A DNA stretch of 63,918 bases, the filler included, from Limisphaerales bacterium (GTDB lineage: Bacteria > Verrucomicrobiota > Verrucomicrobiia > Limisphaerales > SIBE01): the NCBI GenBank assembly GCA_044225505.1. It is 4 parts of 4 records of this genome, joined end to end, with 100 filler letters (N's around TTAATTAATTAA, not from the genome) between each part and the next. Parts side by side here need not be neighbours in the genome. Positions count along the whole stretch, not along the records: positions 51,922 to 63,918 come from JBGAIN010000212.1; 3 more parts are not named here. One strand, written 5' to 3'. This document shows, piece by piece, positions 1-57,062 of the stretch; the first letter of the stretch is position 1, and each line of letters opens with the position of its first letter. Made by a program: the position numbers and the translations under genes. Under the pieces are notes generated by a model. It was not told the origin of the DNA and made no database searches. It saw nothing but the letters and a program-made list of their open reading frames with translations.

Positions 1-29
1 TTCTTCCGTTCAATGCCACGTCCTCGGCC

Positions 30-110
30 GTCCCGTCGGGACTTGGAATCGCGCCCATTCAAGCTCGGCGTTAAAACGCCGAGCTATTCTCGAGTTGCCC
101 CATCCGGGGC
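30..110. repeat. REP-like three-hairpin palindromic element
   Basis: GTCCCG-T-CGGGAC (30-42), AGCTCGGCGTT-AA-AACGCCGAGCT (62-85) and GCCCC-ATCC-GGGGC (97-110). A degenerate copy lies at 6364-6450. Confidence 0.55.
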
Positions 111-905
111 GCCAGGAGGCAATTACCGAATGGCATTAGGATTTATTCCGCAGGAAGCCTCGCCTGGCCGACGGCGCTGGGATAATTCGAACCCTGCCCT
201 CGCCGCGCCTGTTCCTGCGAACTGCAAGTCCGCGTTGCTCTTCAATTTGGCATGCTGACCTTTGCCGGTCGCGTCCCGCGTCCATCGATCGCGTATGGCC
301 ATGCCTGGCGGCACTTCCGCCAGGCCGCAGAGTTGTCCAGCCAGCCGTATGCCCGGCTCCTGATCGCGTTGCGCCAGGAGTTGGGCGAGCACAACGGGCG
401 GCTGTTGAAGCCGCCTCTTGACCTCTCCGGCTCTATAGACCAGCCCGCTTAAATTGGGGCCGTAAACGAGGCGATAGCGTCAAGATAAACGGGCAAACCT
501 ACGGGCCCGCCAGTGACACTCACCCCAAGGGTCCCAGGGCGGGGAGCGGTGCGGCGCGCCAGCGCCGCCCGCCCCCGCTCTGGGTGGCTTGAAGAGGAAC
601 TTTGTACGGATGAGGCCGCCGCGCATGGCGATTCTTGCCGCCATGTCAGCAACCGGGCCGCTCATCAAAACGCGCTATAACTCAAATGCGTGCGAAGTCT
701 GGGAGGCAATTCCAGAAAAACTGGAAGTTCACCGGAAATTGCAGCGATACCGGCGGCGCTCAGCGTACGATGGGAAAAGTCGCGAGACAGACATCTGCGA
801 TTCTTCGGGACTGACCCTTCCGCTTTCGCGTTCTGGATCTTGCTGCTGATCGTGCTCTTGTTCTTACTCATCCGCCTGAGCCGCATATTGGTTGGCGCTT
901 TCCAG

Positions 906-48280: not shown

Positions 48281-48374
48281 TCCTGGCTGCCGTCAGCGCG
48301 AAACTGATAATCCACTGTCATAGCCGAGCGGCGAACCACCGCGCACCTCGCCGAGTTCGCCGCTCGAGTGATTT

Positions 48375-48808
48375 CAGAAGAGCTGTAAGCCGAATTCTGT
48401 CTGCGCCCTATTGGACGGAGAGAATCATTTGTCTGAGCGGCCACTACCCGAAACCGGGTCTGCCGAAGCAGACGCTGAAGCGGGCCGCTTCGCGGTTTCC
48501 TATTTGGCCTTGCACCGGATGAGGTTTTCCGTGCCCCCTCGATTGCTCTCGGGGCGGTGGGCTCTTACCCCACCTTTTCACCCTTGCCTTACCCTTTCTC
48601 GACGAAGGGCTGCTTCTTAATAGAAAACATCCCTCCGACCAGAAAGGGCCAGGCGGTTTGTTTTCTGTGGCACTCTCTGTCAGCACGGCCTCGCGACCGT
48701 GCCTCCCGCGTGTATCTGGAACCTAATTCCGGTTACGCGGCATCCTGCCCTGTGGTGTTCGGACTTTCCTCTTCCAACTCGCGTCGAAAGCGATCCTCCA
48801 CTCTTCTG
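48375..48808 (-). ncRNA. rnpB: RNase P RNA (type A)
   Basis: Minus strand: GAGGAAAGTCCGAAC, AGTGCCACAGAAAA, GGGTGAAAAGGTGGGGTAAGAGCCCACC, ACAGAATTCGGCTTA. P1 is formed by CAGAAGAG/CTCTTCTG. Confidence 0.97.
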
Positions 48809-48882
48809 AAATCGCTCCTACGCTACCGTCCTTTGGTCAAGATGACAAGCAACACCGCGGCGAATTGTGGCCGTCCAAGAAA

Positions 48883-53319: not shown

Positions 53320-55719
53320 ATGCCGAAAGACCGCAGGCCATCTCGAATCGACGACTCGCAGCCAGCCCCGGCGCGCAAGCGGAAACTCGGCGTCTGGGCA
53401 ATGGCTATGGTTGTGCTCGGCGCGGTCGCGATTTGGGGCTGGATAGGCTCGCGCGCCGTTCGCCCCGAGCGGGAGTCAACAAACGGTGTCCGGTCTTCAT
53501 CGGATCAAAATAGATTTCGCTTGGAAGACGAAAAAGCCGTCTTCAAAACCTATGCGGGTTCGAGCGCCTGCCGCGATTGCCACAAAGAGGCTTATAAGCT
53601 TTGGGAAGATTCCCACCACGGCCAGGCGGAGCGCTCACCACGGGCGGATTGGGATCAATCGGCCTTTGACCCACCTCAGACTTTTCGCCATGGAACACAA
53701 CAGTCATCCGCCTCCTGGACTAACGGGAAGCCTCATCTCGCCAGTTTAGGGTTGTCCGGCCAACGAGAAACACACGCGGTCGAACGAGTGATCGGGCACA
53801 GCCCGCTTCGTCAGTTTTTGGTGGCGGCGGGAGAAGGAAGGTTGCAATCGCTCGAGGCTGCGTTTGATCCGAAGGCGCACGTTTGGTTTAACGTCTACGG
53901 GGATGAAGATCGACGCCCAGGCGAGTGGGGTCATTGGACTGGCCGCGGCATGAACTGGAACGCGATGTGCGCCAGCTGCCATAATACCCGACTCCGCAAG
54001 AACTACGATGCTGCCGCCGACAGCTATCGCACAGCGATGGCCGAACGGAGCGTCGGTTGCGAGGCCTGCCATGGCCCCTCCAAAGAGCATGTGGATTGGC
54101 AAGCGCAGTACGGACGATCCGGTCGCCACGATCCAACGGTGGCGAAGTTATCGCCGCAACAGCGTATCGATAGCTGCGGATTTTGCCACGCACGCCGCAA
54201 TGATCTCACTGGCGACTTCAAACCGGGCGACCTGTTCCTAGACCACCAAGATCTGGTAATTCTCGACCACACCGATCGCTACTACCCAGATGGCCAAGTT
54301 CACGACGAAGACTACGAATACGCGTCGTTTCTAAGCAGCCGCATGCACGCCCGAGGAGTCACTTGCGGCGACTGTCACGAGCCTCACTCGGCAAAGCCCG
54401 TCCTGCCTGGGAATTGGTTATGCATGAAGTGCCACAACGGCAGCTACGCCAATGCCCCAGTCATCGCACCGGTCGCGCATAGTCATCACAAAGTGTTCGG
54501 ATATAACTCCGCCGGAGTCGTAACGAACTCAGATCTGCTCGCCTATAACCCGACGGCCATCCGAGAAACGGGAGGCGAATGCGTGAACTGCCACATGCCA
54601 CAGACCACCTACATGCAGCGCCACCGACGCCACGACCATGGGTTCACGATTCCAGACCCGGCCCTGACTCAAGAACTCGGGATTCCCAACGCCTGTAATC
54701 GTTGTCACCAGGACAAGGGCACGGCCTGGGCCATGCAGGCTGTCGAACGGTGGTACGGACCCAAAATGGTTCGTCCCAGCCGAAACCGAGCGCGCGTCAT
54801 TGCCCAGGCGCGAAACGCCGCATCGGCAAGCCCAACGAACCTGCTCCAGCTTATTAAACACGAAGAAATCCCTTACTGGCGAGCGGTTGCTTTGGGACTT
54901 TTGGGAAGTTGGGCCGAGGATAGCTCCGTCCGGCAAGCCTTGCTACAACATCTCCATGACACGAATGCCTTGGTTCGAGCTGCTTGCGTTCGGTCCCTGG
55001 AGGGTTTGGCGAATGGTGGGACGCCGATTGCCGACCTTCTTCGACCAATGCTTGATGACCCCGTTCGCGATGTGAGAATCAGCGCAGCTTGGGCTCTGCG
55101 GTCAACTCTTTCGCCGGAAACGCAAGCCGCCGCCGAACTCCAACACACTCTTGACCTTAACGCGGATCAGCCGACAGGACAGTGGCAGCGCGGCATTTAC
55201 CATTATAGCCGCGGCGAGTTCGATATCGCCGTCGGACACTTTAAGAAAGCGGTGGCGTGGGATCCCGGTTCGCCCCCGTTCCGCCATGAACTAGCCATCG
55301 CCCTCAGCACACTGGGCCGTTCCCGCGAAGCGCTTGAACAACTCCAAGCCGCGTGCCAACTGGAACCACTCGACGCCGAAACCCATTTTAAGCTCGCCTT
55401 GGCTTATAATGAGACTGGAGATCTCCATCACACCGTCAGTGAACTCAAAGAAACCGTCCGATTGCAGCCTCGCCACGCCCGGGCGTGGTATAACCTGGGA
55501 CTCGCCCAAAACGAACTAGGGGATGCCACGACCGCCGTCGAAACGCTCCTTCGCGCCGAGAGTATCGATGCTTCCGATCCGCAAATCCCATTCGCCCGCG
55601 CTTCTGTCCTCGTCCGCTTGACGCGCCATAGCGAGGCGAAACAGGCCACTTTAAGAGCCCTTGAGCTCCGTCCAAACTATCCTGAGGCGCGTCAGTTGTT
55701 AAACCAGTTGCCGCGCTGA
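53320..55719 (+). CDS. Multiheme cytochrome c (8 CxxCH) with HEAT and TPR repeats
   Basis: CRDCH, CASCH, CEACH, CGFCH, CGDCH, CMKCH, CVNCH, CNRCH; N-terminal TM; HEAT (DPVRDVRISAA) and TPRs (AWYNLG). Confidence 0.92.
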   Translation: MPKDRRPSRIDDSQPAPARKRKLGVWAMAMVVLGAVAIWGWIGSRAVRPERESTNGVRSSSDQNRFRLEDEKAVFKTYAGSSACRDCHKEAYKLWEDSHHGQAERSPRADWDQSAFDPPQTFRHGTQQSSASWTNGKPHLASLGLSGQRETHAVERVIGHSPLRQFLVAAGEGRLQSLEAAFDPKAHVWFNVYGDEDRRPGEWGHWTGRGMNWNAMCASCHNTRLRKNYDAAADSYRTAMAERSVGCEACHGPSKEHVDWQAQYGRSGRHDPTVAKLSPQQRIDSCGFCHARRNDLTGDFKPGDLFLDHQDLVILDHTDRYYPDGQVHDEDYEYASFLSSRMHARGVTCGDCHEPHSAKPVLPGNWLCMKCHNGSYANAPVIAPVAHSHHKVFGYNSAGVVTNSDLLAYNPTAIRETGGECVNCHMPQTTYMQRHRRHDHGFTIPDPALTQELGIPNACNRCHQDKGTAWAMQAVERWYGPKMVRPSRNRARVIAQARNAASASPTNLLQLIKHEEIPYWRAVALGLLGSWAEDSSVRQALLQHLHDTNALVRAACVRSLEGLANGGTPIADLLRPMLDDPVRDVRISAAWALRSTLSPETQAAAELQHTLDLNADQPTGQWQRGIYHYSRGEFDIAVGHFKKAVAWDPGSPPFRHELAIALSTLGRSREALEQLQAACQLEPLDAETHFKLALAYNETGDLHHTVSELKETVRLQPRHARAWYNLGLAQNELGDATTAVETLLRAESIDASDPQIPFARASVLVRLTRHSEAKQATLRALELRPNYPEARQLLNQLPR

Positions 55720-55885
55720 AACCACGTTTGGCAGCATCGCCGTGGACCCAGCGCAGAATAAAACCAAAATCGATCGTTGACGACTGCCTGGAAAGGCGCA
55801 GGATTAGGACATAGTACCCGACTCTAAACCAGTTCTCTCTCTGCCGTGGAGGGTCCGCAACGCAAGGAACCGTCTGGACCGTTCG

Positions 55886-56431
55886 TTGCGGAAAGGGCTT
55901 TCTTACCTGTTGTGCGTCGCCAGCGTTGGGGTAACGGCAAGCTTCTGCGGGTGCGGTTTGCTTGGTCCCTTGGTTAACACGGCAGTTCCTGTAGCCGGAG
56001 CCAAGATGATGTTTGCTTGTATCCCGGCACGGACGCAAGTGGACACTCCGCTCGGCCCGAAGCCGATTGAAGACTTCCTTGCAGGCGATACGGTGATCGG
56101 CTTTACCGGTAAGCCGGTCCGAATCTTACAGAAACACGCCTACCTCGAAGATCCCCAAACGCAGTTTCTGCAGGTTAGTTTTGAAGGTGGGTCTACCCTC
56201 GCTCTCTGCGGCATGCATCGCATTGCTGGAGTTCGAGCGCAGTCCATTCAGGTCGGACAGACGATAGCCCATCGTAAAGTAGTGCGGATCGAACGGAGCG
56301 CCGGATACACCCAATCTTTCGACCTCCTGACCGAGGACCCGGGTTACCAAATCCAAGGAATCCCCGTTAACAGCATGATCGCGGAAATGCAGGAAACTGC
56401 CGTCTCGCGGTTGCGCACGGTTCGTCCCTGA
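55886..56431 (+). CDS. Lipoprotein with a stand-alone Hint (intein-like) domain
   Basis: Lipobox-like ASFCGC; Hint block A CIPARTQVDTPLGPKPIEDFLAGDTV, block B CGMH, blocks F/G SFDLLTE..GIPVN-S. Confidence 0.8.
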   Translation: MRKGLSYLLCVASVGVTASFCGCGLLGPLVNTAVPVAGAKMMFACIPARTQVDTPLGPKPIEDFLAGDTVIGFTGKPVRILQKHAYLEDPQTQFLQVSFEGGSTLALCGMHRIAGVRAQSIQVGQTIAHRKVVRIERSAGYTQSFDLLTEDPGYQIQGIPVNSMIAEMQETAVSRLRTVRP

Positions 56432-57062
56432 TTTCAATGCGAGTCATGGAACCCGTTTGATTGGCTTCCTATAAGTCAGGGTGCCTCAGCAACGCGCTGC
56501 CGCTTTGCCGGCTTGAATGAGCGCAAATCGCCAGATCACCAACGGCTCGGTGACTGCAACAACCTCCGTGCCGGTAGTGGAGTCGGCCTCATGCCGAGCA
56601 ACTCAGGGCCAGACTCACAGGTGAGTACGCCCCCCTTCTCTCTGGGAGACCGAGACGCTGTCTAGAATGAGAGTCCGCAAGCCTGGGCTTCGAATCCAAG
56701 GATCCAGGGTAAACACGTTGAGCAGCGCCTGCGGTCATTCGAGGCAAGGCCGGTGCAAGGCCGGTCCGTGAGCGGCTTTGCACCGCGGTTGTCCGGGCGT
56801 TGCATCGTGGTTGCTCCGGATCAGGCGGGCACTCCGCTCCTCGCACTTTCACTCAACCTCTGACGCTTCGTTCAGCAACTGCTGATCGTCCGAGGTTCGG
56901 CCTAGCTCCGAGCCAAAGGGAAACATCAACGTGAACGCCGGCAGAGCCGCAGCTTTGATCGCGAAAGCCCTCCCTTAACCAGGATGCAAGAGGCCAGCGC
57001 AATCCAAACCGTGTCCCTTTTCCTTCATTCCCACCAACCAGATCGTCCTCGGGTCCGCCGGA

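Follow-up and report, generated by a model that had tools for sequence, protein, structure and literature searches.

A minimal Hedgehog-like Hint domain in a predicted lipoprotein of Verrucomicrobiota, shared with phage proteins

A small gene of a Limisphaerales bacterium encodes a precursor that is made up of a predicted type II signal peptide, a short Gly/Ala-rich segment, a Hint domain and a C-terminal helix (Table 1). The residues that serve the N-terminal step of Hint chemistry are conserved, and we observed the same cassette at the end of long phage proteins. The product is likely an exported lipoprotein whose predicted Hint domain probably cleaves itself at Ala44-Cys45, leaving a 22-residue lipid-anchored amphipathic helix in the envelope. 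A Hint subfamily with predicted Hedgehog/type-B chemistry, present in minimal lipoproteins and in phage ejection-slot proteins, is apparently undescribed: none of the papers listed by full-text literature searches dealt with it. Secreted bacterial proteins with a C-terminal Hint have been mentioned from Myxococcus, Photorhabdus and others (Buerglin 2008, PMC2362128).

A solitary gene for a lipoprotein-type precursor

The window, i.e., the whole stretch of 63,918 nucleotides analysed, carries the gene as an open reading frame (ORF) with a TTG start codon. Its coordinates and translation match those of the first-pass annotation. The latter described a minimal Hint in a lipoprotein precursor that lacks a folded host domain, and the architecture bears this out. 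The gene is present in one copy in its own genome (9.0 Mb), with a G+C content of 0.566 versus 0.573 for the genome. The public call of the same gene (P0002) begins at Met42 and has lost the signal peptide (region 55886-56011), and mis-starts are common among the homologues too. Four of the 10 RNA runs listed, from 3 studies, each yielded one contig of 195-252 nt inside 55848-56489; since these contigs carry neither strand nor level and the runs were found via the same stretch, they are a weak sign of transcription.

Table 1. Features of the lipoprotein-Hint gene, with positions in the window
Feature	Position	Strand	Basis
Whole gene, lipoprotein-Hint precursor, 181 aa	55886..56431	+	ORF translation, homologues
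Predicted type II signal peptide, residues 1-22, lipobox F-C-G before Cys23	55886..55951	+	motif; homologue starts
22-residue Gly/Ala-rich amphipathic helix, Cys23 (predicted lipid site) to Ala44	55952..56017	+	predicted released lipopeptide
Lys40, at -5 relative to the cleavage site; may be an acyl acceptor or serve in docking	56003..56005	+	conservation
Hint domain, 119 aa, Cys45 to Ser163	56018..56374	+	predicted model, structure match, alignment
Cys45, Cys1 nucleophile	56018..56020	+	134/134 dereplicated rows (rows chosen to have Cys45)
Glu88, conserved acid in a family-specific loop	56147..56149	+	49/49 lipoprotein, 70/85 phage-type rows
Block B, Cys108-x-x-His111	56207..56218	+	His in 134/134; in lipoproteins Cys 39/49, Ser 10/49
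Block F, Asp146 and Thr149	56321..56332	+	both in 134/134
Block G, Asn162, Ser163 and Met164	56369..56377	+	structure match, alignments; Ser/Thr at 163 in 134/134
C-terminal helix, 18 aa	56375..56428	+	model helix 164-177; same motif in phage forms

A protein search for near-length homologues gave 315 matches among 429 candidates, and Cys45 to Asn162 spanned 118 residues in 121/121 proteins (the query and 120 homologues among the matches listed). In GTDB, 111 stretches encode a relative; among the 80 listed, the phylum was Verrucomicrobiota, except for 2 Planctomycetota, 1 Lentisphaeria and 4 without a phylum. Beyond its own genome the gene is rare, being found in 3/300 genomes of the order and 0/6 of the family, and a sample of 400 genomes of the phylum gave one strong and one weak match. 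The weak match (L130, in G176; E 3.7e-6) covers the N-terminal half of the profile and lies inside a 755-aa frame. The gene is real and under purifying selection: dN/dS was 0.19 for the N-segment, 0.23 for the Hint domain and 0.08 for residues 163-171 (14 non-overlapping pairs, 36 genes). The value of 0.92 for the signal peptide comes from an ungapped comparison and is unreliable.

The lipobox-like FCGC with Cys23 that had been noted at first pass was confirmed by motif, and homologues begin 21-22 residues ahead of the same lipobox Cys. A Cys lies exactly 22 residues ahead of the Hint Cys in 105/121 proteins; among the remaining 16, short gene calls predominate. Scoring of 81 genome loci revealed Gly/Ser/Ala-Cys behind a hydrophobic stretch, with LSGC (15) and LSSC (12) as the commonest motifs and several non-canonical ones. 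None of these 81 loci has Asp at +2. In E. coli, a lipoprotein without Asp at +2 favours the outer membrane, a rule that derives from E. coli and not from Verrucomicrobiota.

The AlphaFold2 model contains a helix over residues 27-40 of the N-segment, at low pLDDT, and the periodicity of the segment is 100-115 degrees. The length from lipid Cys to junction ranges from 14 to 40 residues (22 in 60/96 proteins, 18 in 13 and 26 in 10), and the lengths, of which 12 are distinct, tend to correspond to whole helical turns (R 0.51, p ~0.004 versus random subsets). Judged by this sequence pattern, the N-segment appears to be an amphipathic helix held in register with the predicted lipid anchor. Since its lengths fall near whole helical turns, anchor and junction would keep a fixed orientation at the membrane.

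The gene stands alone. Linkage to the upstream multiheme-TPR gene, raised at first pass, was seen at 0/80 other loci, of which 68 had at least 2.7 kb upstream; links to the ArsR, flavin oxidoreductase and aldo-keto reductase genes were likewise ruled out (0/80). The multiheme gene itself (53320-55719, plus strand), which encodes a multiheme cytochrome c with HEAT and TPR repeats, is common in relatives independently of the Hint gene; nine relatives (G401-G404, G406, G479, G617, G650 and G677) have a DNA match to it and none to the Hint family. A conserved operon was ruled out, the largest neighbour clusters covering 11 and 8 of 81 loci (own overlapping frames excluded), and so was a conserved upstream RNA, as only close kin align and no Rfam match lies near the gene. 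No promoter or terminator consensus was found near it. In a Pfam scan of 105 of the 149 neighbour ORFs, the neighbours were unrelated metabolic genes, with no phage or integrase family among them, and 4 of the 149 nearest ORFs matched PADLOC (E 1e-15, greedy ORF calls, raw count). A defence-island or prophage setting was thus not seen in these scans. At three loci of one subclade (L044, L060 and L068), an NA37 nucleoid-associated gene lies beside the gene upstream, and at L047 fxsA lies downstream.

Fold and active-site register of the Hint domain

AlphaFold2 (107 sequences) gave block-mean pLDDT values of 94-98 across residues 51-160. A Foldseek search with this model returned matches with a best E of 3.7e-7, and every listed match was of the Hint fold (inteins, BIL and Hedgehog domains). 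In VIA, the model aligned over 119 residues with Hedgehog 1at0 (Z 17.2, rmsd 1.6 Å), several inteins tied at Z 16-17, and 84 chains reached Z of at least 8. The fold proposed at first pass is confirmed by these three results, and the domain can be described as a Hedgehog/type-B-BIL-like Hint of 119 aa. Its unusual shortness, also remarked on earlier, holds as well: gp41-1, termed one of the smallest inteins, has 125 aa (10.1101/546465). Across the subfamily, the domain takes 109-126 residues up to the penultimate position, which places it below gp41-1.

Cys45, block-B His111 with Cys at the Thr position, and block-F Asp146 are present as the first-pass annotation had them. Its reading of the C-terminal end, with a terminal Asn-Ser and a penultimate His replaced by Val, is off by one residue according to both structure and sequence alignment. 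Residues 45..163 of the model pair in VIA with residue 1 to the last residue of many inteins, among them Mtu RecA (1..440), Mxe GyrA (1..198), Ssp DnaE (1..159) and PI-PfuI (1..454), and these last residues we take to be the terminal Asn. Residues -1..125 of gp41-1 pair with model residues 43..163. In a MAFFT alignment with the five Hints of P0262, Asn162 lies opposite His and Ser163 opposite Asn; P0262 is a protein of 1353 aa in which five tandem Hints, four ending in His-Asn and one in His-His, are separated by short Cys-rich linkers. In the corrected register, as modelled and aligned, Asn162 occupies the position of the penultimate His and Ser163 that of the terminal Asn, with Met164 as the +1 residue. 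Val161 is an ordinary block-G residue.

The two residues expected of the HINT superfamily, Cys/Ser1 and the block-B His, are present as the invariant Cys45 and His111. No block-F or block-G His is present in the domain. At residue 163, a single one of 120 near homologues naturally has Cys, and the +1 residue is Met in all 120 of these as well as in 134/134 dereplicated rows (49 lipoprotein and 85 phage-type). The loop that carries Glu88 is four residues longer than that of gp41-1, and by its position Glu88 is a possible counterpart of the Hedgehog general base.

Canonical splicing requires a terminal Asn and a +1 Cys, Ser or Thr (PMC7765530). It is excluded here, since Ser163 stands at the terminal position and Met164 at +1, and the leading idea of the first-pass annotation, a 41-aa spliced lipopeptide, rested on the misread register. 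Class 1 inteins end in Asn, Gln or Asp before a +1 Cys, Ser or Thr, and neither feature was found. The class 1 mini-inteins gp41-1, Cat/TerL and MchDnaB1 share the fold (Z 16-17), and CatC is the nearest sequence profile to the subfamily (E 5.6e-6, phage-type alignment). Unlike them, the present domain, 6 residues shorter than gp41-1, has no His-Asn end, no +1 nucleophile and no C-extein. The C-terminal His-Asn of type A BILs is likewise missing, Asn-Ser occupying those positions.

The motifs agree with those of a type B BIL: block A, block B and the block-F Asp are present, and His-Asn is absent. Type B BILs lack only the C-terminal motif, and N-terminal cleavage is expected of them (PMC7765530). 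The type B family Hint_2 (PF13403) is also the best Pfam match, at 17.8 bits versus a cut-off of 28.4 and over 38 matched residues. None of 78 long relatives reached this cut-off either (best, 28.3), and no Pfam model catches the subfamily at cut-off. In contrast to type B BILs, the host here is conserved, under purifying selection and not hypervariable, and the domain has conserved flanks of its own.

The Hedgehog Hint (1at0, 6tyy) resembles the domain in fold (Z 17.2, rmsd 1.6-1.7 Å, 119-120 residues aligned), in Cys1 and the block-B His, in a Ser, Thr or Cys that replaces Asn at the end of block G and in an N-terminal product that is a lipidated peptide, as predicted here. It differs in length (145 residues versus 119) and shares 18% identity; the block-F Asp, the Lys at -5, the one-helix N-terminal part and the occurrence in bacteria and phages are particular to the present family. 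A sterol-recognition region was not found, the tail being 18 residues long with about six conserved. Model residues 45..165 align with Hedgehog 258..402, so that Ser163 would face residue 400 (Cys143) if the alignment, known by its range ends only, is gap-free. Hedgehog Cys143 forms a branched thioester and has been called functionally equal to Cys+1 (Faris et al., PMC12054796). By analogy, it would be the nearest model for Ser163. A Hedgehog-type active site in bacteria and phages bears on the origin of Hedgehog autoprocessing and on the job of the block-G nucleophile.

The cassette at the end of phage proteins

Searched with a profile, 1.84 billion representatives yielded 403 proteins. Among the best 150 of these, 77 carry the complete domain behind at least 150 residues, always near the C-terminus and between a Gly/Ala-rich hydrophobic stretch and the same short helix; these 77 are sequences alone, without genomic context. 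Confirmed viral loci carry the long form in 47/47 cases and the lipoprotein form in 0/47. The viral long forms measure 291-1256 aa, a few being clipped by contig ends, and their cassette (Lys-x4, Hint, short helix) lies directly behind a Gly-rich hydrophobic helix. The cassette is thus shared between Verrucomicrobia lipoproteins and phages. Cultured phages gave no match to the lipoprotein-Hint protein or to P0149, none of 20 long proteins checked had an informative host name, and the viral loci did not match the bacterium's own genome.

Gene order places the long forms in the slot of the first ejection gene after the tail genes, as seen from an annotated example and from the size pattern: a same-strand ORF of at least 900 aa lies within the next three genes at 24/28 viral loci with at least 6 kb downstream. 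In the annotated phage, a Hint-less homologue of P0165, one of the phage-type proteins, comes after the portal, major virion protein, tail tube, stabilisation protein and acetyltransferase, and before genes of 444 and 718 aa. The same order has been described for gp14/gp7-gp15-gp16 (PMC8954989). At six viral loci, 13/50 proteins matched PHROGs, including tail fibres and virion proteins; an acetyltransferase lies directly upstream of the long form at L082, and a lytic domain directly downstream at L126. The long proteins themselves matched PHROGs in only 3/32 cases, one as "DNA ejection protein" (E 1.3e-6) and two as "virion structural protein"; phrog_4287 was matched by 1/32 and, in another set, by 2/58 phage-type proteins, and the host part of P0165 matches phrog_6121. 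The host profile A3 had no match to a solved ejection protein in the PDB, and the Atlas match of the phage-type host to P22_gp7 stood as a lead at 0.87.

The long phage-type proteins are likely DNA-injection proteins of the gp7/gp14 slot, with sequence kinship to gp7/gp14 at the level of a candidate only. They share with P22 gp7 and T7 gp14 the gene slot and a Gly-rich hydrophobic C-terminal helix. Their length (291-1256 aa versus ~200) sets them apart, and the literature consulted on gp7 and gp14 describes no Hint. In P22, gp7 inserts into the outer membrane by two helices that include hydrophobic residues 191-229 (10.64898/2026.09.03.749273).

The slot behind the Gly-rich helix is variable. 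Among the 120 homologues of the P0165 host in the matches listed, it holds the Hint in 8, Peptidase S74 in 49 and nothing in 41, and 22 are unclassified; 48 of the 49 proteins with the S74 motif carry the PF13884 tag. A continuous empty allele, as for a class 1 intein, was thus not found among these sisters: the 41 end at the junction, and the 49 carry S74. S74 is a chaperone domain that detaches itself from the low-complexity virion proteins carrying it (PMC7824862). It uses the same C-terminal slot of the same host family and is an analogue only, unrelated in fold and in chemistry (Ser-Lys). By inference, phage ejection-slot proteins carry the Hint cassette as a cap that can be both exchanged and removed. 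Only about the first six residues of its tail are conserved and some tails stop after 9-10 residues; the tail helix would belong to the cap and not to the product. Many podophage ejection proteins may perhaps start out with a C-terminal cap, either Hint or S74, that is later removed, and full-text literature searches gave no description of such a maturation. The proteins that end in Peptidase S74 after the Gly-rich helix, ~49 of the 120 ejection-slot homologues of P0165 residues 1-299 (P0272-P0390), would be labelled tail fibres if annotated by the S74 domain.

The lipoprotein Hints cluster in the tree (3 changes versus 40 when shuffled). They lie on one side of a branch with support 63 in a 60-row rooted tree, for which the five Hints of one protein served as outgroup and two long-branch rows were left out. 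The phage-type Hints are the more diverse. In an AU test, monophyly of the 35 phage-type rows was not rejected (p 0.76), the constrained tree scoring 12.5 units higher; transfer from phage to bacterium is thus unproven as a direction.

Proposed processing, alternatives and role

In the proposed mechanism, the precursor would be exported by Sec and lipidated at Cys23, after which an N-to-S acyl shift would take place at Cys45, aided by His111 and Asp146. The acyl group might then be relayed to Ser163, as to Cys143 in Hedgehog. Resolution would be intramolecular, with water and the side chain of Lys40 about equally probable as acceptors, and the Hint domain and tail would leave as a single piece. 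In phages, the helix by which the first ejection protein inserts into the membrane would be capped by the cassette until the latter is removed; in the sister proteins, S74 would play this part.

A Lys corresponding to Lys40 is found at -5 in 117/117 testable near homologues and, after dereplication, in 49/49 lipoprotein and 75/85 phage-type rows; 10/85 phage-type rows are without Lys at -5, and 80/85 have one within -4 to -6 (5/85 without). In the P0165 family, it is present in 8/8 Hint-bearing members, which are close kin and hence not independent, versus 0/49 S74-bearing and 0/41 capless ones. Since none of these 90 Hint-less sisters has it, Lys-5 would serve the Hint rather than the membrane helix. 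In the lipoprotein and the phage-type groups alike, it is found on the hydrophobic face (-21 and +7 degrees), which on a helical model would be a poor place for a free Lys charge, though Lys40 ends the modelled helix. A precedent for a Lys acceptor of a Hint thioester is BIL2, a Hint forming a Lys isopeptide (PMC8616854). Because Lys-5 tracks the Hint, sits on the hydrophobic face and has this precedent, ring closure through Lys40 is a tentative hypothesis worth stating; the product would be an i to i+4 lactam whose C-terminus bears no charge, formed without another enzyme, and if true the cassette would be a self-contained cyclisation tag. Docking of Lys40 on a conserved acid (Glu88, Asp151 or Glu167), followed by hydrolysis, is as likely as ring closure.

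Ligation in Hedgehog style had already been offered as an alternative at first pass. Here, an acceptor outside the molecule would resolve the thioester or the ester at Ser163. Such ligation suits the corrected active site well, and we rank it below self-release, as an unlikely outcome. Lipids of the membrane, amines of the cell wall and lysines of other proteins (a neighbour copy or an incoming phage protein) are candidate acceptors, and the lipopeptide would thereby be turned into a covalent tether or into an oligomer held by cross-links. The structural match to Hedgehog is among the tied best, Ser/Thr persists at the putative Cys143 position, the Glu88 loop is extended relative to gp41-1, and the N-segment lengths near whole helical turns would fix the orientation of anchor and junction. 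However, the tail offers no region of the size needed for sterol recognition, no conserved partner gene lies nearby, phage forms would need to remain soluble in order to be packaged, and S74, which occupies the same slot, is a domain for plain release.

Splicing in a register shifted by one residue, with Ser163 taking the acyl group and Asn162 cyclising, would yield a 41-residue spliced lipopeptide. Both residues are kept in 91/91 lipoprotein forms. Asn, Asp and Gln are residues that cyclise in inteins, and they account for 118 of the penultimate residues of 124 phage-type proteins (Asn 94, Asp 20, Gln 4). Some weight is left for this route because the branched thioester of Hedgehog Cys143 is held equal to Cys+1. 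It is nevertheless very unlikely: structure and alignment both put Asn162 at the His position, the block-F and block-G His are lacking, the penultimate residue is Ala (3), Glu (2) or His (1) in 6/124 phage-type proteins, and Hint-less sisters end at the junction without a tail, so that nothing needs rejoining. Equally improbable is a precursor that stays unprocessed or is slow in the cell, its lipid-tethered Hint being a stable periplasmic partner-binding domain with, e.g., a Cys45-Cys108 disulfide, for although two cysteines lie in active-site blocks of an exported protein and Cys108 is present in 120/120 near homologues, Cys108 behaves like the Thr of TxxH (Ser in 10/49 dereplicated lipoproteins, Cys in 71/85 cytoplasmic phage forms) and all N-terminal catalytic residues are invariant.

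For self-release as the preferred reading, the bacterial role of the helix is the weakest step. Its rarity and location, together with its resemblance to the pore helix, point to a decoy that would disturb the outer-membrane injection pore of phages, a role that we regard as doubtful and to which the gene neighbourhood lends no support. SieA blocks entry of P22 DNA by acting on the ejection conduit (PMC10883804). Like P22 SieA and the lipoproteins Ltp and Llp, in the accounts available, the product would be a small envelope protein stopping DNA entry; these proteins are phage-encoded, not self-processing and without homology to it, and the likeness in role is a guess. The whole scenario taken together is a long shot: a one-gene, enzyme-free cyclic lipopeptide (or cross-linked copies), of a kind that phages would use to mature a pore helix and that Verrucomicrobia would keep as a decoy jamming injection.

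Two further elements were seen in the window. An intergenic repeat with a predicted hairpin lies downstream of the lipoprotein-Hint gene (56677-57014, core 56733-56825); it had 56 blastn matches at ~36 places on 30 contigs of the same genome and looks like a REP or MITE. A class A RNase P RNA is located at 48370-48809 on the minus strand.
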